Of a DNA stretch of 64,000 nt, positions 32,821 through 53,092 are shown piece by piece. Within the stretch, counting starts at the first letter, position 1. Each line of letters starts with the position of its first letter. A program made the position numbers and the translations under genes. The notes beneath the pieces are model-generated. The model did not search any database and was not told the DNA's origin. It saw only the letters and a program-made list of their open reading frames with translations. Origin of the DNA: Candidatus Poribacteria bacterium (GTDB lineage: Bacteria > Poribacteria > WGA-4E > WGA-3G); assembly GCA_965215265.1 (NCBI GenBank), contig OZ244048.1:576001-640000 (forward strand), given 5' to 3'.

Positions 32821-34908
32821 TTATGGAGTTTTAAGCAGTTCTGCTGCAAACTGATTGATGTCGAATTCCCGCCATGTCATGTTTCCATACATATCAATAG
32901 TAGATAATTGGACCTTGTTGATGTTCTTATACGGTAATTCAAATGCCACAGTAGTCTCTTTTTCACCATTCAATTTTTGCCACCCATGCAAGATGAATCC
33001 CCCTTTCTTCTTTTCCTCTATCCAGTACCTCTTGTTTCGTTGTTTATTCTGATTTATCTGGTATCCTGGTGGCGGCGTATAGGATGTTGGGGGGACCTGA
33101 AACTGAATTTGATGGATGCCATCGTTATCTGTTACGACAAACCGGAGACGTGTTATCTTGGGTTGTGCGGGAGTCGATGGTAATTTCTCACGAGAAGAAT
33201 TTTCTAACGCAGCCTCTTTAGATTTATTAATCGTTGCCCGTTCATTGAAAAAGGGTTGGTTAGGATTAAAGAAGCGACTTTTACTTAACCATTCTGCGGC
33301 ACATTTAGACAATCGGTTTTTGGTTTTGCCATAAGACATAATATGGTTGGGATGCCGAAAATCGTGTTCTAATCCAAAGGCGTGTCCGAGTTCATGTGCG
33401 ATAATCTCCCACTTAAGTTCTTCACGGGAATTGTAAATGAAAGCACTTCCGCCATGGGTTGCTCCCATCAATTCTTTATTATATAGAAATAGATGAGGAG
33501 AGCCTGTTCCGCTTATCTTATCACTTTTATTATTCACGACTACAACCCAGACATTCTTTGACCGATCAAAATGTTTAGAAATTTCCTGCTTGATTTTTGA
33601 TGCTGCGTTCCCGTCATAGTACTTTTGAGAGTATTGTCCTTTGACAAGATAAACTTTGGCTTTACCGCGAGCATCAGTTTCAAAAGTGAAGGTTTTTCTG
33701 CCGAATCCATGGTATTCCATCTGATCTGCGTAAAACCGCTGCACTTTACTGATGACCCTATTCAGTTTTACCCGGATGGTTCTCTGTGGTGTGCCATCAG
33801 ACGGCAAGAAGTAAATCATGCGAACGACATCAGCGTTCATCGTGTCAAGCGTTGCTAATTGCTGGGGTGTGACATCCCACAAGTAGAGAATTCCATTACT
33901 ATTGCCAGTAGCAAGTACGCTGCCGTCTCGTGAAAAGTCGACAGCGCGAGCGTCCTCCTCAAATAGTACGATGGGTGCACCATTCTCCACTGCCCATAGT
34001 CCTATTCCGTTAATATGGGCACCTGCCCACAGTTTTCGCTGTGGCGCGAACGCCAAATCCAAAGTCCTTCCACGCTGCACCTCACCATGCAGGTGCAGCT
34101 GAGGTAAAGTCAAAATGGCGTTCCCATCATATCCGCCACTCGCAAGGAATCGGTTATCAGGAGAAAACTTGACAGGTAGCGTCTTGTCTGGCACGCCTTT
34201 GAAGGACTTTATGAGCTGTGCACTCTCTATATCCCAGATATTCACGTTTCCGCCAGTGTCGCCGGCAACGAGCCAGTTGCCGTCCGGTGAAAAGTCAAGT
34301 CCAAATATTATATTTTTACCCTCGTCTAATTTGGAAGTCTCGTGAGGTAGCGTCCCTATTTTCGTTATCTCATTCGGATTCCGGATGTTCCAGAGCGTCA
34401 CGTATATAGCAGCACTAGCGAGTTGATGCCCAGTCGGAGAAATGGCAACAGTAGTGACAGGGATTCGACTAACAGAATTGATTTTCCTACCAGAGGAAAC
34501 ATCCCACAATATAGTACCATCTAAACTGCCACTAACAAGAAAATCTCCCGCCGGAGAAAAGGCGATGCATCTAACTGTCTTAGTATGACCGATGCAAGTT
34601 ATCTCATTCCCGTTGATGTGATTCCAGAGTTTAATAGTGTTATCGGCGCCTGCACTCGCAACGAGAGAAGAATTCACCGGTGAAACAGCCACAGAGTGAA
34701 TATCAGCCCCATGATTAAACTCCGCGTACGGATTTACCTTTTCTGGTGGTTTTGCAAATGTCCAGTTGGAATTTTGCAGCCACGTGAAAAAATCAACCAA
34801 CTCAGTAATAGTGAAAGTACGGAAGAAATAGTCAATCACGCCAAAAAGCACGAATACAAGGCACAATCTCATTATTACCGATTTAAGCTGTTTTTGATGG
34901 GATTCCAC
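32821..34908 (-). CDS. WD40 beta-propeller plus metzincin-type metallopeptidase domain protein
   Basis: WD40 repeats (VAVSP..LVASAGADNTIKLW) followed by HELGHAFGLEH..IMSY. Confidence 0.85.
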   Translation of the reverse strand: MESHQKQLKSVIMRLCLVFVLFGVIDYFFRTFTITELVDFFTWLQNSNWTFAKPPEKVNPYAEFNHGADIHSVAVSPVNSSLVASAGADNTIKLWNHINGNEITCIGHTKTVRCIAFSPAGDFLVSGSLDGTILWDVSSGRKINSVSRIPVTTVAISPTGHQLASAAIYVTLWNIRNPNEITKIGTLPHETSKLDEGKNIIFGLDFSPDGNWLVAGDTGGNVNIWDIESAQLIKSFKGVPDKTLPVKFSPDNRFLASGGYDGNAILTLPQLHLHGEVQRGRTLDLAFAPQRKLWAGAHINGIGLWAVENGAPIVLFEEDARAVDFSRDGSVLATGNSNGILYLWDVTPQQLATLDTMNADVVRMIYFLPSDGTPQRTIRVKLNRVISKVQRFYADQMEYHGFGRKTFTFETDARGKAKVYLVKGQYSQKYYDGNAASKIKQEISKHFDRSKNVWVVVVNNKSDKISGTGSPHLFLYNKELMGATHGGSAFIYNSREELKWEIIAHELGHAFGLEHDFRHPNHIMSYGKTKNRLSKCAAEWLSKSRFFNPNQPFFNERATINKSKEAALENSSREKLPSTPAQPKITRLRFVVTDNDGIHQIQFQVPPTSYTPPPGYQINQNKQRNKRYWIEEKKKGGFILHGWQKLNGEKETTVAFELPYKNINKVQLSTIDMYGNMTWREFDINQFAAELLKTP

Positions 34909-44240: not shown

Positions 44241-46049
44241 TTAAGAAATTAAGGGGTTTTTCACCTTTTGTCTCGAATCCGGTGCGGTTGGAATGCAGGT
44301 CGCAATCTGATATGCGTATCCGTCGCGTTTCTGGATTTTGCGAAGTTGTTTGATATTGCCACCGACGCGATCGTCTCCGTCCCACGATTTTTTTACACGC
44401 AGTTTTTGAGGTTTTCCTTCAGATGTTTTATCAAACGAGTTGATATGTCCCACAACTTTCCCTTTGTGTGTGAGCATTTCGACCATATCCAGTTTTTGAA
44501 AACCGCCCGCGTGTTCAACACGCGTATAAGGTCGTTTGAATCCGGGCGCGGTCTGCTTTGTTTGGCAATTGCCTAAATCTCTGCGATGCCCGTATCCTAC
44601 TGCATGGATACCTAGCACAGAAAGCGGCATGTTTGGCAGTTTGACAACCCCTGCGACACACGCTGCATCATAGTAGTGTGTTTTTGGCAACCCCGCTTGT
44701 GAACGATGATATTTCGTTTTTCCACCGGTGCCACAGAAGACTTCAAGCCCCGTCGCTTTTAGCGTCTCTACAATCTTCCAACGAATCGTGTTGACTGCGG
44801 CAGCATCCTTTAGCGGTTTTTTGGCAGCTGCTGATGCTTTTTTCACACGTTCCGCAAAATCTTTACCATGTTCCTCTTCATTTATCTCATCAGGGTGTAG
44901 GTTACCTTTTTTGGTATTACACGGGCCACATGACAATGTCAGGTTATCCACACGGTTTGTACCTCCTTTCGCTTTCGGGATAATATGCTCTATTTCGAGA
45001 GGCACGTTCTTTTCCTTGCAATAATAACATTTCCGACCGAACTTCTCAAGTAGGTATTCCCGTATTTCATATCCTTGAAGTTTACCCTGTTGGTATTCCT
45101 CTCCCGATATTTTAGAGTTATCCATCAGTTGCATATCAAACTTCACGTGTTCAACTGCTAGCTTTTTGATAGGATAAAGCTTTGAAAGCCTGTTCACCCA
45201 TGTCGCGATATTATAGATACGTGACATCAAGGATGGTGCTACCCAACCATTATCGGGGTTCTCTTCTTTTTCGATAAAAGAAAAATATAATTGCGGTTCT
45301 TCACGGCGGTTGCGCTTTTGGGCGTTGCTATATTCACGTTTTAAGACACGCCGCCACCTTTTCTTTACAGAATGCTTTTTCGGGCTATAGGTGTACACCT
45401 TTTTTGGATAACGCTTTTTATACTGCTTATGTGCCTCGTTATTGCTATTATAGCGATAATATTTACCTCCTTTTTCATAGTAAATATCGCCAGTACGCAT
45501 GCGTTTCCCGTTGGCGTAATAGAGCCGTGTCTTCTCTCTATGTTTTGCAGGCGAAGGGCGTAACCGCGTCCACTCGTAACGCTTATCTTTCAGCATGGCA
45601 TCGCTGACACGATGGAATGTGTTTTCCGTTTTCCGGGTATTCTTGACTTTTTCATATATCCACTGCCCGTTTACAAGGCGAGGACTCTGACGAGAACGGT
45701 TATCAAATCGGGGGGCACGGTGACGACAGTTCCGAGTCCGCCTACTCCGACGATGCCCGCTTCTATCCGACAACGCTTTCTTAATGCTTTTCCGGTGATG
45801 CAACTCAAAAAAAGCAACGACGGTGTTCTCTGAATCTGTAATCGCCATGCCAGTGCATTTTGAGCCAGGGTCAATTGAGAGGGTATAGTCGCCTGTTTGT
45901 GACTCAGGCACCTCAAGTTTCAAGATAATGGTGAATGGATAACGTTTGTAGACCGCAGCCTTCTCCTCGCGAAGTAAACGCCTCGCAACAGCAGGATGGC
46001 ACGGTTCTAATACGCGTTTCTTTGTATCTAATACAGGAACTTTTGACAT
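44241..46049 (-). CDS. iscB: Enlarged RNA-guided endonuclease IscB (CRISPR-associated)
   Basis: PLMP/RRXRR-like N-terminus (VLEPCHPAVARRLL..YPFTIIL); RuvC-I SIDPGSK; bridge helix RSGHRRSRRTR..RFDNR; GWVAPSL; RuvC-II VEHVKFD; HNH CYYC..EHIIP..GGTN..NL..CGPCN; RuvC-III THYYDA. Confidence 0.95.
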   Translation of the reverse strand: MSKVPVLDTKKRVLEPCHPAVARRLLREEKAAVYKRYPFTIILKLEVPESQTGDYTLSIDPGSKCTGMAITDSENTVVAFFELHHRKSIKKALSDRSGHRRSRRTRNCRHRAPRFDNRSRQSPRLVNGQWIYEKVKNTRKTENTFHRVSDAMLKDKRYEWTRLRPSPAKHREKTRLYYANGKRMRTGDIYYEKGGKYYRYNSNNEAHKQYKKRYPKKVYTYSPKKHSVKKRWRRVLKREYSNAQKRNRREEPQLYFSFIEKEENPDNGWVAPSLMSRIYNIATWVNRLSKLYPIKKLAVEHVKFDMQLMDNSKISGEEYQQGKLQGYEIREYLLEKFGRKCYYCKEKNVPLEIEHIIPKAKGGTNRVDNLTLSCGPCNTKKGNLHPDEINEEEHGKDFAERVKKASAAAKKPLKDAAAVNTIRWKIVETLKATGLEVFCGTGGKTKYHRSQAGLPKTHYYDAACVAGVVKLPNMPLSVLGIHAVGYGHRRDLGNCQTKQTAPGFKRPYTRVEHAGGFQKLDMVEMLTHKGKVVGHINSFDKTSEGKPQKLRVKKSWDGDDRVGGNIKQLRKIQKRDGYAYQIATCIPTAPDSRQKVKNPLIS

Positions 46050-46054
46050 AATGT

Positions 46055-46256
46055 CCTCTACTTTCGCAAGTAGGTAATGTAAGCCTCGATAATGTTAGTA
46101 TCGCTTTTGGGTCAAGGTTGACTGCGTATTGTACAGCTGTTTACAGAGCCTCCACAGAGCCTCAGACTGGCTTATGTATCCAAGGGTGTGATAACGAAAC
46201 TAACGTAGTTAAAAACTAAATCTTGATTACACTGTAGCCTACTTTTGTGTCGCAAC
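46055..46256 (-). ncRNA. omegaRNA scaffold with 5' CRISPR anti-repeat (tracr-omegaRNA)
   Basis: Minus strand: anti-repeat GTTGCGACACAAAAGTAGGCTACAGTGTAATC (46225-46256), then omegaRNA/HEARO-like blocks ACTACGTT, ACCCTTGGAT, CCAGTCTGAGGCTCTGTG, GTAAACAG, ACATTATCGAGG, TTACC, ending just before the iscB start. Ends approximate. Confidence 0.85.
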
Positions 46257-46260
46257 TTTT

Positions 46261-46350
46261 GCCGTCAACCTCCCAATAAAAATACATTATTGGGGGTCGA
46301 CTGCAAACTCTTCACGCTGGAGCTATACGCTCACTGCGTTCTCACATAGC
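46261..46350 (+). promoter_or_regulatory. Putative CRISPR acquisition leader with inverted repeat
   Basis: gtcaacctcccaataa...ttattgggggtcgac inverted repeat (46264-46301) about 50 bp before the first perfect repeat; the degenerate repeat is at the opposite end. Confidence 0.55.
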
Positions 46351-48177
46351 GTTGCAACCTAAGCAAGCTACAGCGTAAACTCAAAATATGCTACAATACT
46401 AATATCAATTAAGAAGTTGCAACCTAAGCAAGCTACAGCGTAAACGCGTTAAGAGCGTTCGGATTCGTTGTCAAACAAATGTTGCAACCTAAGCAAGCTA
46501 CAGCGTAAACCAGGCAGCATATAACAAGTTCGCACTGTTATCAGATAGTTGCAACCTAAGCAAGCTACAGCGTAAACGAAGCCCTTTTCATACTAACAGA
46601 TGAAAGCAAACGGGTTGCAACCTAAGCAAGCTACAGCGTAAACGTATTCTATGATATGCCAACCGTGGATGCGGTTTGTGTTGCAACCTAAGCAAGCTAC
46701 AGCGTAAACTGCTACGAGGTTTTTCATATTGAAAGCATGACGCAGGTTGCAACCTAAGCAAGCTACAGCGTAAACTAAACCGAATGCTATGACTACTAAC
46801 GTCATGCCAGCGTTGCAACCTAAGCAAGCTACAGCGTAAACTACGTACGATCCACTGTGCATACGTCTGCCCAGGGATCGTTGCAACCTAAGCAAGCTAC
46901 AGCGTAAACGAGGGTTACCTTTTCTGAAATCATTTCATCCCCCCAATGGTTGCAACCTAAGCAAGCTACAGCGTAAACTGAAGCCCTTTTCATACTAACA
47001 GATGAAAGCAAACGGTTGCAACCTAAGCAAGCTACAGCGTAAACAGTAACCCAATCAGCCAGCTGCAGCACACACTGCAGCGTTGCAACCTAAGCAAGCT
47101 ACAGCGTAAACTATTACACAAGCGCGTTGGGAGAGCAAACTGAAAGAGTTGCAACCTAAGCAAGCTACAGCGTAAACTTGATTGAGTATCTCAACTTCAT
47201 TCGTTGGCCATACAGTTGCAACCTAAGCAAGCTACAGCGTAAACACAGAAGCGTCGCCTGATGAAATCCGTAAGGTCCAAAGTTGCAACCTAAGCAAGCT
47301 ACAGCGTAAACCGCGTCCTCGAAAGGATCCACGGTGAATCTGCTCTGGTTGCAACCTAAGCAAGCTACAGCGTAAACTGCTCTCTTTCTGCTCTTATAGC
47401 ATCGACTGTGTCTGTGTTGCAACCTAAGCAAGCTACAGCGTAAACTTAGATATGCAAATGAAAGCTGGCATGCTTGATTCTAAGTTGCAACCTAAGCAAG
47501 CTACAGCGTAAACTTTACGATTTTGAGAACTGTCGGCTGGTATCATGAACGTTGCAACCTAAGCAAGCTACAGCGTAAACCTCGCTACGTCAACCCCGAC
47601 GGCACGCAATGTCTCTGGTTGCAACCTAAGCAAGCTACAGCGTAAACCTTGCAAGGATATTCTCATTAAATTCACTTATTGGAGTTGCAACCTAAGCAAG
47701 CTACAGCGTAAACATGTAGGATATGAGATTGCCTGCTTCGTGTGCCTCGTTGCAACCTAAGCAAGCTACAGCGTAAACTACTTCAATGTTTCGATCGGTT
47801 CGTATCCTGCGGCCTGTTGCAACCTAAGCAAGCTACAGCGTAAACATCGGAAAGGGGGATACGCTGAAGTTGACAGAACACGTTGCAACCTAAGCAAGCT
47901 ACAGCGTAAACATGAAAAAGATTTTTCATCTCAACCGTCCTTTTGAAAGTTGCAACCTAAGCAAGCTACAGCGTAAACTTACTGTAGTATCCTTCGATTT
48001 CCGCAACTTCTGCCGTTGCAACCTAAGCAAGCTACAGCGTAAACTCTTTTGACTTTACCGTATCCTTGTGTCCGTTTTTTAGTTGCAACCTAAGCAAGCT
48101 ACAGCGTAAACGCATTACGCCCAACCCACACAAGCAACGATTCTGACGCTGTAACATAAGCAGGCTACCACGTAAAC
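46351..48177 (-). CRISPR. CRISPR array: 28 repeats (27 identical plus 1 degenerate), 27 spacers of 35-39 bp
   Basis: 30-bp repeat, plus strand GTTGCAACCTAAGCAAGCTACAGCGTAAAC; terminal copy 48148-48177 has 6 mismatches. Minus-strand expression is inferred from the promoter and anti-repeat wobble pairs. Confidence 0.99.
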
Positions 48178-48179
48178 AT

Positions 48180-48208
48180 ATTATATCTTAACTTGCAAAA
48201 AAAGTCAA
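48180..48208 (-). promoter_or_regulatory. sigma70 promoter pointing into the array toward iscB
   Basis: Minus strand TTGACT (48203-48208), 17-bp spacer, TATAAT (48180-48185); predicted TSS inside the degenerate repeat. Confidence 0.8.
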
Positions 48209-48222
48209 GTTAAAGTTGCAGC

Positions 48223-48301
48223 CTCTCATTTACCCCCATTTTTTTTGAAGGTTTGTGGTGAAAGGTTTTTGTTTAGAAATGTGTGAGAAAAGCAGTGGGT
48301 T
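48223..48301 (+). mobile_element. Solo degenerate end of the IS4-like element
   Basis: 48234-48301 closely matches the reverse complement of 9699-9766 (ccccattttttttgaaggtttgtggtgaaaggtttttg...gcagtgggtt). Confidence 0.7.
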
Positions 48302-48555
48302 AGAGATACCCGAACCGGGTAAATCCCACATCTCTGATAACCCGTTTTCAAGACACCTTCAAGGCTTCTGGGACCTCCGCCCCTAGCCCGATGCCACCGG
48401 CACCGAAGACAGCAGCCCTCTGCTTGCAGGGAGACATGAGGTTACCATCAAAAATCTAAAAAAAGAGTGACTTTTTTTCCCATCTGTGTTATACTTCTTT
48501 GCGAGCCAAGTGGCAAACTGGAAAAATGCAGCTTGCGGCAGGCAGGTAAAAAACG

Positions 48556-48633
48556 ATGAAAAAGAATTTCACTACCATTCGGCTCTGGGATGTCAACACA
48601 GGCGAACCCCTCAAAACTCTCATGTCTGTCTAA
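48556..48633 (+). pseudogene. WD40-protein gene remnant (25 aa)
   Basis: MKKNFTTIRLWDVNTGEPLKTLMSV*; TIRLWDVNTGEPLKTL is a typical WD40 junction. Confidence 0.55.
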
Positions 48634-49727
48634 GTGTGCAAGGCTTGTAGGAACGCTTCAAAACTGGGTGTCTCAACGGCGATGAGATGCAGCTGCTTGA
48701 GCCGCACCAGGTCTGGTATGGCTTCAAGGTGCGGTTGAGTCGTCTGCACGTCGCTCTGCGGGAACCGTGCGGTGAGCACCGTGATGACGTTTTCTATCGC
48801 ATTCCGGCGTGCACCTTGTTCAATGCCTTGCTCAATGCCTTGTTTGAGTCCTTGTTGCACCAGGACTTCTGCCATTGTCTCTGCCATCTGTTTTACCTCC
48901 ATCTTATCTTCTGCGAGTTGCTCCACTAATGCGACTAAGCCACTTTGTTCTGATAGCGGCCGACGATGCAAGATGAGTAGCAGGAAATAGACTATCGCCT
49001 CACGCCGCTGTTCGGCACCAACCGTATCAAACTCATCAAGGTGTGCTATCGCCGTGCGTAACGCATCCCGTATCTCCGCCTCGTCTGCTCTCTCTTTTTG
49101 CAGCACCGTCAAAAGCCACCCGAACGGATGATGCGTTTGAGTCAGTGTGGCGACATCGGTTTGCTTCACGCTCAAAAACAGCGTCTCAAAGGCAGGAACG
49201 AACCGGGCGAGTTCAGCAGGGATGTCCATCAGTGCCTCAAGTGTCAGCGGGGTTTTCCACTGCTGCTCGCCGGTATAAAACACAATCGGCAGTATCGGGG
49301 GCAACCGCCGCGCCGGTTTGGGCACCTTGTCGTGTTCCCATTGCCTGCGATGTGCGTCCCAAATCAGCATCATATAAAACAGCACCCGAAACCCCATCGT
49401 CGCATCCACCGTCGATTGATGTTCGACGAGCAGATAGATGAGCAGCGCCTCGGTGGCTGTCTCGGTTCTAAACGGGACGCGGAACACGCTATCCGCTTCC
49501 TGCTCCCGCAGCACTTCCGGCAGCAGGCTTCTCGGGAGTGGAACGAGTTGGCTAAAATCTATGCGTTCTGCGATGTCAGCGGCGACGATTTCTAGCACAC
49601 CCCGGACGTTTTCGCCGTTTTGTAGCAAGCGCCGCACACTTCTGTCGGCGAAGTGTTCAACGCGTCCATCAAGCAGCGCGCGGATATGCTGCATCTGCGT
49701 ATCCACGGCTTTGGTTTCTTGCGTCAT
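48630..49727 (-). CDS. Rpn/YhgA-like PD-(D/E)XK protein
   Basis: EADSVFRV, IYLLVEHQS, FRVLFYM, LPPILPIVFYTG..W; C-terminal QGIEQGIEQG repeats. Confidence 0.9.
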   Translation of the reverse strand: MTQETKAVDTQMQHIRALLDGRVEHFADRSVRRLLQNGENVRGVLEIVAADIAERIDFSQLVPLPRSLLPEVLREQEADSVFRVPFRTETATEALLIYLLVEHQSTVDATMGFRVLFYMMLIWDAHRRQWEHDKVPKPARRLPPILPIVFYTGEQQWKTPLTLEALMDIPAELARFVPAFETLFLSVKQTDVATLTQTHHPFGWLLTVLQKERADEAEIRDALRTAIAHLDEFDTVGAEQRREAIVYFLLLILHRRPLSEQSGLVALVEQLAEDKMEVKQMAETMAEVLVQQGLKQGIEQGIEQGARRNAIENVITVLTARFPQSDVQTTQPHLEAIPDLVRLKQLHLIAVETPSFEAFLQALHT

Positions 49728-49976: not shown

Positions 49977-52900
49977 ATGCGAACACCAAAACAGAAACTC
50001 CAAACGCTTCTCCAACAACTCTTCCGTACCGATGCCGCCGAACTCGACTTCGGCATCTACCGCATCATTAACTACCGCCGCAACCAAATCCAAAACTTTA
50101 TAGATACCGAGCTCCCCACCCTCATCAACGACGCGCTCCACGCAGACACACACGCAGAAAATGCACACCAACAGATAGAAACCCTCGCAAAACAGATACA
50201 ACAAACCCTCGGCGACACCGTCTTAGACGCAGACGGAAACCTGCTCAACGAGAACTTCAGACAAGCCCCACTTGTCCAGCAATACCTCACCGCAAAACAA
50301 CAACTCGGCACCCCCAGAACCCAAACCGAGCGCGCCGATGCCGTTTTCAATCACCTCTACACCTTTTTCTCACGCTACTACGAAAATGGCGACTTCCTCC
50401 CACGCAGACGCTACACGCAAACCCAACGATACGCCATCCCGTATAACGGCGAAGAAGTCTACCTCCACTGGGCAAACCGAGAACAATACTACGTCAAAAG
50501 CGGAGAGCATTTCACCGGTTACACGTTCAAAGCCGAAGCGATTACTGTCACCTTCTCGCTCCGCACCATAGACATAGAAAAGGACAACGTCAAAGGCGCG
50601 AAACGCTTCTTCATTCCGCTCTCTGCCGAAACGCAGTATCGCCCGGAAACCAAGCAGCTGGAGCTCCCGTTTGAACATCGTCCGCTCACTGATGCGGAAA
50701 AGAAGCGCTACGGCAAGCAGAAACAACAAGAGAAAATCCTGGATGCCGCTGAACCTGAAATCCTAGCAAACCTGAGCGCTCACTATGAAGTGCTGTCTGC
50801 CCTAGAGCGCCGCACGGATGAACTAAGCACGCTGAAGAAACACCTGCGCACCTACACGCGCCGCAACACGTCGGACTTCTTCATCCACAAGGCGCTGAAG
50901 CGATTCCTGACGCGTGAGTTAGATGTATATCTAAAAAACGAGGTTATCCCTCTGTCTGGCTTTATACTTAACACATATCAAGGGGGGGGGCGGTACGGGC
51001 AAATGGAAACGGCCCCACGCCGCCACCTTGGCTTGAAACCGCACAACTCGTTCACCGCATCGCCACACAACTCATCCACTTCCTCGCTGACATAGAAGAC
51101 TTTCAGAAACGCCTCTGGCTCAAAAAGAAATTCGTCCTCTCTACCGACTACTGCCTCACGCTCGACCGGGTCCCGGAAGCGTTCTACCCCGAAATCGCTC
51201 ACAACCGCGCACAACGCGAGGCGTGGCAGCACCTCTTCGCCATTGAGGATATCGCAGGCCACCTCATCAACACCGACTATTCTGAGCCGCTCACGGTGGC
51301 ATTCCTCCAGCAAAACCCGAACCTCGTTCTGGATACCTGTCACTTCGACGCAGACTTCAAAGACCGGCTGCTGGCACACTTCGACGAACTGGATGCCCAA
51401 ACCGATGGACTGCTCATTCATGGAGAGAATTTCCAAGCGTTAAACCTCCTCACCGCGAAATACCGAGACACCGTGAAAGCCATCTACATAGATCCGCCCT
51501 ATAACACCAAAGGCTCCCCAATTTTGTATAAGAATGACTATAAAGATTCATCATGGATGTCTCTCATGGCTGACCGAATTGCTATTTCCCGGGAGTTATT
51601 AACAAACAACGGTACCTTCTGTGCCGCCATTGATGAAGTGGAAGCTCCTAACCTTTGGCAGCTTCTCCAACAGCTATTTGGCAAAGAAAATGAACTTGGG
51701 GTTGCAGTGGTCTGTACAAACATATCCGGGGTCACAACACCTAAGAGACTCGCTGCATGTCACGAATATGCCATGTTCTTCGGCAAGAAACCTGACGTAA
51801 AGGTCGGACATGTTAAATGGACGGAAAAACAACTCAAAAACTATAAAGATATTGACAATCAAGGCCGCCGTTTCAGATGGGTAAATCTCAGGAATGATGC
51901 CGGAGGCCCTAATAAACTGCGGGAAAACAGCCCGCGTATGTTCTACCCGCTTTTCGTGAGCGATCAGAACATACGCATTCCGAAAATTGAGTGGGATGAA
52001 GAAGCTAGGCAGTGGCAACTATTAGAATCCCCTACCCCGAATGAAACAGAAGTATTACCGATTCAGCCAAATGGAAATGAAGTGACATGGCAATACTCGA
52101 TAGAACGGGTGGAGGCGATGTTATCATCATCCGAACTGTATGCGAGAAAAGATAAAAATGGGAATATCCGAATCCGCTTAAAGTGGTTCCTAAAAGAGGA
52201 GGGTATATTGCCAAAAACATGGTGGGATAAAAATGTATACGCTGCTGGTAGATATGGAACGACTTTTCTCACAGATATGTTCAGCGACAATTTTGCATTT
52301 CCATATCCGAAGTCCATCTATCTCGTAGAGGATTGCCTCCGCGTCTCTTCGCTGGGTAAAAACGATACTGTCTTAGACTACTTCGCAGGTTCTGGCACCA
52401 CCGCCCACGCCACCATCAACCTGAACCGCCAAGACAACGGCAACCGAAAATATATTCTCGTAGAAATGGGACACCACTTCAACACCGCTCTCAAACCCCG
52501 GCTCCTCAAAGCCATATACGCACAAAACTGGAAACACGCAAAACCCACATCACGCCAAAGCAAACTCTCACACCTCTTCAAATACCAACGCATAGAATCC
52601 TACGAAGATACACTCAACAACATCCAGTTCAAAACACACCAAAATCCGCTCTTTCAAGAACCGATGCTACGCTATCTGTTAGGAAACGAAACCCATGAGA
52701 GCCCAACGCTGCTCAACATTGAGAAGCTCCAAACCCCATTTCACTATCAACTCAACATCGTCACCGGGCTAAACACACAAACACAAACCATAGACATTCC
52801 GGAAACCTTCAACTACCTGCTTGGGCTCACCGTCAAAACCCGGCGCGTCTTCTACGATAAAGCCAGACGCTACCTCGTCTACCGTGGCACTCTCCAGGCG

Positions 52901-53092
52901 AAGAGCGTCACGATTATCTGGCGAGAGACGCACGGCTGGCAACCGGAAGATTGGGAAAGAGACTCTCGTTTTATTCAACACCATAAACTCACGGAACACG
53001 CAGACACGCTCTATGTGAACACCGACAGCATCGTCCCCGAGGCAAAAGCGTTGGACGTGCTCTTCAAACAGTTAATGTTCACCGAACCGTGA
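49977..53092 (+). CDS. mod: Type III R-M methyltransferase (Mod), frameshifted at a G9 tract
   Basis: LDFGIYRI, YNGEEV.LHWAN, DFFIHK in the first frame; IEDFQK.LW.KKKFV, YIDPPYNT, YPKS, DYFAGSGTT in the second frame, open from 50972; G9 at 50982-50990. Confidence 0.85.

Follow-up and report, generated by a model that had tools for sequence, protein, structure and literature searches.

A probable CRISPR-associated IscB system of Candidatus Poribacteria, with an array repeat that pairs with an anti-repeat ahead of the omega-RNA scaffold

Background

Can an IscB nuclease draw its guides from a CRISPR array, and if so, how would the repeats of such an array be joined to the omega-RNA that the nuclease uses? 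The question is raised by a stretch of 64,000 nucleotides (contig OZ244048.1, positions 576,001 to 640,000; referred to as the window throughout) from a Candidatus Poribacteria bacterium, a sponge symbiont whose one-contig genome of 4.83 Mb is 95% complete as judged by marker genes. On the minus strand of the window an iscB gene is preceded by an omega-RNA scaffold, an anti-repeat, a leader and a CRISPR array. An earlier reading, made from the letters of the window without database searches (here called the sequence-only reading), had claimed that the anti-repeat takes the place of the omega-RNA 5' stem, that substitutions within it preserve an RNA duplex, and that this duplex is probably processed by RNase III. 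We followed up these claims by cofolding, model searches and comparison with related loci, and conclude with high confidence that the locus is a CRISPR-associated IscB system. Its anatomy, the pairing of its repeat with its anti-repeat, their covariation and their strand bias can be read directly from the DNA of the locus and its relatives, and transcription, processing and DNA cleavage are inferred.

Results

Anatomy of the locus

In the minus-strand sense the locus runs from a promoter-like site through a 28-repeat array, the leader, the anti-repeat and the omega-RNA scaffold to iscB. Its features, in window positions and with lengths in nucleotides (nt), base pairs (bp) or amino acids (aa), are as follows.

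48180-48208, minus strand: promoter-like site (TTGACT, 17 nt, TATAAT; 11 of 12 consensus letters), found by consensus match; read in the minus sense, it immediately precedes the outermost repeat.
46351-48177, minus strand (the strand proposed for use by IscB): CRISPR array with 27 spacers, in which 27 of the 30-nt repeats are identical and a further one is degenerate.
46257-46350, no strand assigned: type I-B-like CRISPR leader of 94 nt, with a conserved hairpin at 46264-46301 and without the promoter segment of I-B leaders.
46225-46256, minus strand: anti-repeat, the 3' strand of the guide-adaptor stem, from cofolding and covariation with the repeat.
46074-46224, minus strand: omega-RNA (HEARO) scaffold, a body like that of tracrRNA (the trans-activating CRISPR RNA), from an RF02033 match.
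46050-46073, minus strand: short 6-bp hairpin and a stretch for ribosome binding ahead of the start codon, from sequence and fold.
44241-46049, minus strand: iscB gene of 602 aa, with RRXRR/PLMP, RuvC and HNH domains.

The repeat occurs in 27 mismatch-free copies at 46351-48111, where none would be expected by chance, and in a degenerate copy at the far end (48148-48177). The 27 spacers are 35-39 nt long, and one of them is present twice (46578-46613 and 46979-47014). The array sits 302 nt upstream of the iscB start codon on the omega-RNA strand, and its repeat is found only at this locus within the 4.83-Mb genome. Among relatives (cited below by L numbers for loci and G numbers for genomes, the host being G000), 11 further loci have an array that immediately precedes iscB on its strand, three hold one or two repeats (L014, L016, L019), one has an unrelated 37-nt repeat (L171), and one has none (L021). 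Matches of the IscB repeat family are confined to IscB loci in the host genome, G077, G150 and G065; in G066 there is one weak match away from the IscB locus, and in G152 no match. The L051 array, like that of the window, holds one spacer twice (spacers 4 and 6 of 12), and the doubled spacers of the two arrays point to internal duplication or repeated uptake.

Pairing of the repeat with the anti-repeat

At the centre of the sequence-only reading stood two observations, namely that the anti-repeat pairs with the minus-strand repeat as a 20-bp stem with one U-U mismatch, an internal bulge and an 8-bp stem, and that four substitutions give G-U wobbles on this strand that would be A-C mismatches on the other. 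Cofolding, which had been proposed as a check, confirmed both at 46225-46256 on the minus strand. Repeat and anti-repeat form helices of 18 and 8 bp on either side of a 2x4 internal loop, with a G1-C pair beyond the U-U mismatch that extends the 18 bp to a 20-position stem, and all four G-U pairs (three at repeat positions 7, 15 and 17, the fourth a U-G within the distal 8-bp helix) become A-C on the opposite strand. The minus-strand duplex has an energy of -37.5 kcal/mol, compared with only -23.3 kcal/mol for the plus-strand versions. Among 15,506 minus-strand windows of the 64-kb stretch, the best partner of the repeat is the anti-repeat itself (-37.9; mean of all windows -12.6, standard deviation 3.9). 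The runner-up site, near 34100 (-32.5), lies inside an open reading frame (ORF) of 695 aa and was judged to be due to chance.

Covariation was examined in the 16 loci with at least one repeat (the window and 15 relatives), with positions counted outward from the junction. These loci are kin, so the covariation figures overstate their independence, and three distinct repeat families are involved. A local anti-repeat lies just before the scaffold in all 16 loci, including L171, and the sense duplex is more stable than the antisense duplex in 14 of them. The pairs formed by the first seven repeat positions across the 16 loci are listed here.

Position 1: G-C in 14.
Position 2: U-U mismatch in 15.
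Position 3: U-A in 11, C-G in 5.
Position 4: A-U in 11, U-A in 4, C-G in 1.
Position 5: five pair types, paired in all 16.
Position 6: C-G in 14, A-U in 2.
Position 7: G-U in 8, G-C in 7, A-C in 1.

Pairing at positions 3-6 is kept in every locus through two to five pair types each, and the junction is conserved as a G-C pair, a U-U mismatch and covarying pairs. Over positions 3-14, the window repeat forms 12 of 12 pairs with its cognate anti-repeat and only 5-8 with any of the remaining 15, and none of 20,000 shuffled assignments of repeats to anti-repeats came up to the 174 pairs of the cognate ones (mean 143.1, standard deviation 5.3). The ratio of G-U to A-C pairs is 14 to 1 over the first seven positions and 24 to 5 over the first 14, an excess of G-U that, at the level of sequence comparison, fits selection on an RNA of iscB sense. 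The covariation across homologous loci for which the sequence-only reading had called was thus found, and its claim of selection on a minus-strand RNA duplex is supported by the local anti-repeats in all 16 loci, by the covariation and the shuffling, and by the excess of G-U.

The omega-RNA scaffold and the position of the anti-repeat

The HEARO model RF02033 matches 46074-46301 on the minus strand with 75.6 bits and an E-value of 1.9e-14. Model positions ~53-211 align well, and the 5' multi-stem is badly paired. The proposed search with a HEARO model gave a divided answer, with that E-value and an aligned body on one side, and on the other a score below the Rfam gathering score of 83 and an unmatched 5' multi-stem. 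The omega-RNA-like motifs that had been placed about 16 nt after the anti-repeat were recovered almost exactly, the first strongly conserved scaffold motif (CUACGUUA) standing at 46208, 17 nt past the anti-repeat, and the HEARO alignment is continuous from the anti-repeat onward.

Relatives outside the CRISPR-associated group retain the HEARO 5' stem A (L030 with 134 bits, L036 with 121.8, L031 with 107.3), which is made up of a closing helix and two inner hairpins, with the guide immediately 5' of it. Stem A is absent in the Poribacteria clade, and the 3' end of the anti-repeat aligns with the end of the 3' strand of stem A. In the minimum-energy fold of 46040-46415 on the minus strand (376 nt; -123 kcal/mol, z -5.3), the last repeat and the anti-repeat close a two-hairpin multiloop. 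Taken together, the position and loss of stem A and this fold identify the repeat as the ascending strand, and the anti-repeat as the descending strand, of the guide-adaptor stem. The claim that the anti-repeat replaces the omega-RNA 5' stem is therefore correct as to position and has to be amended in one respect, as the anti-repeat provides only the 3' strand, the 5' strand being the repeat.

Transcription, guide formation and processing

Array, leader, anti-repeat, scaffold and iscB would probably be read as a single minus-strand unit. In the window, a consensus scan found no promoter-like site between the array and the anti-repeat, and among relatives promoter-like sites in the sense of iscB occur at the far end of the array in L026 (12 of 12 letters) and L051 (9 of 12). 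A guide would then consist of a spacer followed by its downstream repeat, which would pair with the anti-repeat, and the resulting duplex would substitute for the canonical 5' guide adaptor stem of the omega-RNA, with the 3' end of the spacer placed at the canonical guide junction. The unit next to the leader could fold onto the anti-repeat in cis, the remaining units would have to pair in trans, and the loop or the precursor would afterwards be cut by a nuclease, probably not RNase III.

Several results weigh against this account of the locus. Promoter-like sites are no more frequent than chance would have it (2 found in the region by consensus, 2.5 expected), and there is none at the far end of the L023 array. 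Two of the 16 loci (L022 and L171) have an antisense duplex that is more stable than the sense duplex, and the scaffold score falls short of the gathering score, as described above. None of the sequencing runs on record as RNA contains the locus. Finally, the search for protospacers yielded none: the array found no match in 50,697 phage records; in the host genome its spacers matched only one spacer of the large type I-B/III-A array (array 1, described below), apart from short chance matches; and in 176 genomes of the phylum the array gave only weak matches that straddle repeat borders.

A further sequencing run, X6, whose kind is not on record, has contig depths of 119,326 and 69,745 over 46082-46275 against 42.8 over iscB. 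Its depth is 5,667 over 46258-46325 and 3,168 over 46296-46379, and adapter letters are attached at 46099, 46111, 46184, 46193 and 46220. Depth over the stretch of the X6 peak is flat in the DNA-like runs X1 and X4. The X6 pattern is what would be expected from a very abundant short RNA spanning anti-repeat and scaffold, and we take it only as a hint, because contigs cannot reveal ends, strand or level.

It is conceivable, although unlikely, that the spacer next to the leader is the only one in use, within one long omega-RNA composed of spacer, repeat, leader loop, anti-repeat and scaffold, and that the other units merely serve as a store or are relics. Such use would agree with the minimum-energy fold, in which the last repeat pairs with the anti-repeat in cis, with the one- or two-repeat relatives L014, L019 and L016, which retain the layout, and with the known CRISPR-associated DelIscB, whose native non-coding RNA (ncRNA) is described in excerpts of PMC12660989 as a single RNA whose repeat/anti-repeat hairpin tolerates shortening. 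It accounts poorly for 27 identical repeats with distinct spacers, which would be hard to maintain without use or turnover, and for run X6, which carries, between two repeats, a spacer not found in the window array; in addition, the X6 depth over the leader is far below that over the scaffold, a hint, and only a hint, that the loop is not attached in most molecules.

Quite unlikely, in our view, is an arrangement as in type II-A Cas9, in which a separate tracrRNA would pair in trans with a precursor of the CRISPR RNA (crRNA) and RNase III would cut each duplex. A long duplex (20 + 8 bp) would suit that enzyme, and the X6 depth falls ~12-fold just past the 5' end of the anti-repeat (69,745 vs 5,667), which would fit a cut as well as a transcript start. 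The host genome, however, yielded no RNase III catalytic domain in searches with TIGR02191, PF14622 and PF00636. PF14622 and PF00636 had no match in it, and the best match of TIGR02191 (23.9 bits, cut-off 166) is a 175-aa protein with an N-terminal double-stranded RNA (dsRNA)-binding domain and no catalytic domain. None of 21 genomes (the host and 20 relatives) passed the TIGR02191 cut-off, and the searches in Poribacteria yielded only dsRNA-binding-domain matches, in frames of ~180-230 aa; the RNase III searches were positive in 8-9 of 14 control genomes. A separate tracrRNA is further disfavored by the lack of a promoter-like site between the window array and the anti-repeat. Processing by RNase III, as suggested in the sequence-only reading, is thus not supported. 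Since no catalytic domain was found, maturation would probably proceed through another nuclease, or consist only of trimming.

The leader and its likeness to type I-B

The 94-nt stretch between array and anti-repeat aligns with the leader of a 170-repeat array of the host (array 1, G000:524239-535568), which follows a type III-A csm operon and the I-B genes cas8b1, cas7, cas5, cas3, cas4, cas1 and cas2. This combined III-A (csm1, csm3, csm4, csm5) and I-B locus lies at G000:C1:506000-535600, ~40-70 kb upstream of the window start, and a near-identical copy of the leader of its array is found at ~4319778-4319937, beside a small array. By BLAST against the whole genome the leader match has an E-value of 3.6; it carries weight because its position corresponds and because it recurs in three genomes, and not by BLAST alone. 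Across five IscB leaders and three I-B leaders from these genomes, 19 columns are invariant within a ~45-nt motif that includes the hairpin, and in G152 the two kinds of leader are nearly identical over ~48 nt. An A-rich, promoter-bearing segment is present in the I-B leaders and absent from the IscB leaders.

The hairpin at 46264-46301 might instead be a remnant of the omega-RNA 5' multi-stem (HEARO stem A and hairpin 1) and no element of a leader, as cmscan placed it on the first inner HEARO hairpin and its ends (GUCGAC at the start, GUUGAC at the end) resemble the GUCA...UGAC of the model. We consider this very unlikely, given that posterior values are low and non-pairs frequent in this part of the alignment, and that the same ~45-nt motif occurs in the I-B leaders beside cas2 in three genomes, with no IscB there.

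The relation to type I-B extends to the spacers. The 37-nt spacer at 47045-47081 has a counterpart in the I-B/III-A array that agrees with it in 36 of 37 letters, starts and stops at the same points and is oriented alike with respect to the plus-strand repeats, and the unit lengths of the two arrays (65-69 nt in the IscB array, 63-70 nt in the I-B/III-A array) have the same mode of 66. In 8 of 12 arrays (those of the window, L015, L017, L020, L022, L025, L026 and L051), degenerate repeats, which depart from the iscB-proximal one, are found only at the iscB-distal end, the arrays of L018, L023, L027 and L029 being free of this pattern, and the only spacer common to two species (L015 and L018) is at the iscB-distal end. 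Together with the additional spacer of run X6, these observations suggest that the I-B machinery supplies new spacers, with the iscB-proximal leader as their point of entry. The only Cas1 matches of the host, at 522674 and 1468732, are 97 kb and 846 kb distant from the IscB locus, and four other genomes with IscB arrays have a Cas1 match. As a separate observation, a palindromic 20-mer at G000:C1:3910682-3910701 recurs in spacers of array 1 (524942 and 530608) and in the IscB spacer 47045-47081. This 20-mer may represent a mobile or terminator-like element that recurs and is frequently picked up as a spacer.

We regard it as evenly balanced whether array and leader are of I-B origin, with the I-B Cas4-Cas1-Cas2 located 97 kb away adding spacers at the iscB-proximal leader and IscB reading the array in antisense. 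The fuller version, in which a captured I-B array and leader would still be refilled in trans by Cas4-Cas1-Cas2 and IscB would read backwards, from a promoter at the old end toward the leader, is put forward tentatively, with a little less than even confidence. In type I systems the protospacer-adjacent motif (PAM) is located 5' of the protospacer, and the corresponding motif of IscB and Cas9 is located 3' of it. Read in antisense, the 5' PAM of I-B would become a 3' motif on the IscB non-target strand, and the PAM-proximal end of the spacer would come to lie at the 3' end of the guide, next to the scaffold, where the seed is. Of all spacers, the newest would lie beside the anti-repeat, onto which it could fold intramolecularly.

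Uptake in trans has evidence on its other side as well. The IscB and I-B repeats share only ~14 of 30 bases, a one-contig genome with an IscB array (G150) gave no Cas1 match, the IscB repeat family matched nowhere but at IscB loci in the host, G077, G150 and G065 (with one weak match elsewhere in G066 and no match in G152), and the case rests on one shared spacer. Moreover, the distal repeat may decay from disuse alone, because it has no spacer upstream in the minus sense.

A reading of the array as a class 1 (I-B/III-A) orphan that is functionally unconnected with IscB, and of the anti-repeat as a decayed inverted copy of its repeat, would agree with the I-B-like leader, the 30-nt repeats and 35-39-nt spacers, the spacer in common with the I-B/III-A array and the I-B and III-A genes of the host, but it is extremely unlikely in view of the covariation in 16 loci (even with the unrelated 37-nt repeat of L171), the 14 to 1 ratio of G-U to A-C, the invariable position of the anti-repeat next to the omega-RNA scaffold, the restriction of the repeat family to IscB loci in the host, G077, G150 and G065, and a leader devoid of the I-B promoter segment.

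The IscB protein and its clade

The 602-aa protein matches the NCBIfam model guided_IscB with 384.5 bits (cut-off 175) and the Pfam domains RRXRR (9.2e-57) and HNH (3.3e-12), and it fails the Cas9 models (Cas9 22.7 bits, cut-off 100; Cas9d 43.7 bits, cut-off 375). In its architecture it qualifies as an IscB, having an RRXRR/PLMP N-terminus, a split RuvC into which HNH is inserted, and a bridge helix rich in arginine. The putative catalytic residues D60, E300, H355, N378, H458 and D461 are invariant across 15 aligned sequences. Its AlphaFold model has a mean predicted local distance difference test (pLDDT) value of 62; the insert at the REC position is mostly below 55, with no confidently folded REC lobe. 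The best sequence match in the PDB is TbaIscB (9.7e-36), with an alignment confined to the conserved core, from which we draw no special kinship. The insert at the REC position is ~150 aa long in the window protein, ~120 aa in L015 and L017, ~55 aa in L023, L025, L026 and L051, ~20 aa in L027 and L029, and missing in L014, L016, L019 and L021, which are loci with 0-2 repeats. These inserts are homologous, as they have motifs in common at either end. REC-like inserts at the same site are already known in IscBs, according to the available portion of PMC13180657.

With each species represented by one genome, a scan brought up 47 related loci, the nearest of them in Candidatus Poribacteria metagenome-assembled genomes (MAGs). 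In the phylum, 21 of 176 genomes have an iscB homologue at an E-value of 1e-30 or better, and at this threshold the other genome of the same genus in the survey has none. A metagenome scan with the IscB alignment returned 80 loci of ordinary IscBs, of ~420 aa and 41-55% identity. In the tree, all 15 Poribacteria IscB proteins fall into one clade (support 100/100), arrays occur in all three of its subclades, and the window protein is sister to the short forms. This topology suggests one old CRISPR association, probably with later reduction in the short IscB forms. The loci with one or two repeats (L014, L016 and L019) were considered as precursors of arrays and rejected, as they nest beside the window protein in a clade whose three subclades all have arrays; because of this nested placement, and because they retain leader and anti-repeat, they are more likely reductions.

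Some features of the short-form loci are recorded here in their own right. A group II intron domain match (70.2 bits) is located at L014:2267-2343, ~3.7 kb upstream of the single-repeat IscB locus, and G112, the MAG that holds L014, has at least three IscB copies. L021, the relative without repeats, has by eye a near match to TTGACA-17-TATAAT (L021:5700-5760), followed at once by a short stretch like a guide and by the scaffold, and resembles a one-piece omega-RNA without any 5' stem.

Neighboring genes and repeats

A 365-aa ORF with a Transposase_31 (YhgA/Rpn-like) domain adjoins the far end of the array (48630-49727, minus strand), and a 598-aa N6/N4 DNA methyltransferase, which may belong to a restriction-modification system, is encoded near the IscB locus (51296-53092, plus strand). 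Just past the array, at 48216-48400, contig depth is well above that of the flanks in all four runs (in X1, 18,648 vs 589), with many variant letters and loose ends, as expected of a multi-copy repeat element. The host genome contains many short tandem-like repeat families.

Discussion

CRISPR-associated IscBs are the nearest living models of the passage from a transposon nuclease with a one-piece guide to Cas9 with crRNA and tracrRNA. The Poribacteria clade, with 16 natural loci of 0-28 repeats, a conserved junction and three repeat families, provides a data set from which rules of repeat:anti-repeat recognition could be derived, and it offers compact editors of 450-620 aa. The apparent absence of RNase III turns the route of guide maturation into a testable question. 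Were the I-B reading of the leader true, an effector without adaptation genes would be able to acquire immune memory, and there would be a simple reason why the spacer lies 5' of the repeat in Cas9-type guides. Were the array a captured one, the system would work without RNase III, and the clade, with its varied insert sizes and arrays, would form a living series from omega-RNA to crRNA:tracrRNA.

The likeness to the crRNA:tracrRNA of Cas9 lies in a guide made of a spacer followed by a repeat, in an anti-repeat at the 5' end of the scaffold RNA, and in a long duplex with wobbles and an internal loop. The locus differs from Cas9 systems in that the Cas9 and Cas9d models fail, that there is no confident REC lobe and no adjoining cas1 or cas2, and that the scaffold appears to be a full omega-RNA. 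Among Cas9 types, crRNA maturation by RNase III is a trait of types II-A and II-B, and RNase III-independent type II-C systems and the compact II-D also exist.

With the canonical omega-RNA (HEARO, RF02033) the locus shares the body of the model (positions ~53-211), the place just upstream of iscB and the junction of guide and scaffold; it departs from it in its 5' guide adaptor stem, whose two strands are supplied by repeat and anti-repeat and are separated by a CRISPR leader. The conversion of the 5' stem of the omega-RNA into a repeat:anti-repeat has been stated before (PMC9581776). Unlike IscBs carried by IS200/IS605 elements, iscB is here present in a single copy in the host genome, and no match to Y1 TnpA was found among the eight ORFs scanned around it, a result that covers these ORFs, a whole-genome search for the TnpA family not having been made.

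Leader motif, ~30-nt repeat, ~36-nt spacers and unit lengths liken the array to those of type I-B, from which it is set apart by its repeat, with ~14 of 30 bases in common with the I-B repeat, and by its distance from the I-B cas genes, to which it is not adjacent. Spacer uptake in trans has a precedent in type VI-B, which relies on type II-C machinery, as set out in the accessible part of PMC8092290. The likeness to that case, as far as that part describes it, consists in a locus without adaptation genes, a leader like that of another resident type and a spacer content that varies between populations, and the difference in a borrower that is here an OMEGA-type nuclease and in an array that would be read opposite to the donor sense. 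Our literature search retrieved no paper linking Poribacteria and IscB, and none on IscB spacer uptake in trans.

The closest known system is that of the CRISPR-associated IscBs, e.g. DelIscB, which are credited to Altae-Tran et al. 2021, Science, in the excerpted text of PMC12660989 (also PMC10734217 and PMC9755519). In the same excerpts of PMC12660989, the DelIscB ncRNA contains spacers, repeats and an anti-repeat, and DelIscB resembles the Poribacteria locus in its IscB nuclease, in an array upstream of the ORF, in an omega-RNA-like scaffold that is preceded by spacer, repeat and anti-repeat, and in a hairpin that can be viewed as one transcript. DelIscB has 457 aa, compared with the 602 aa of the present protein and its REC-position insert, the two being likened here by description and not by sequence. 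A I-B-like leader, a shared spacer and a missing RNase III are not mentioned for DelIscB in those excerpts, and may stand in the 2021 paper or its supplements. The kind of system is thus already known, and the Poribacteria locus is a further member of it, whose value lies in the comparative series to which it belongs, in a leader that resembles those of type I-B, together with the shared spacer, and in the apparent lack of RNase III.

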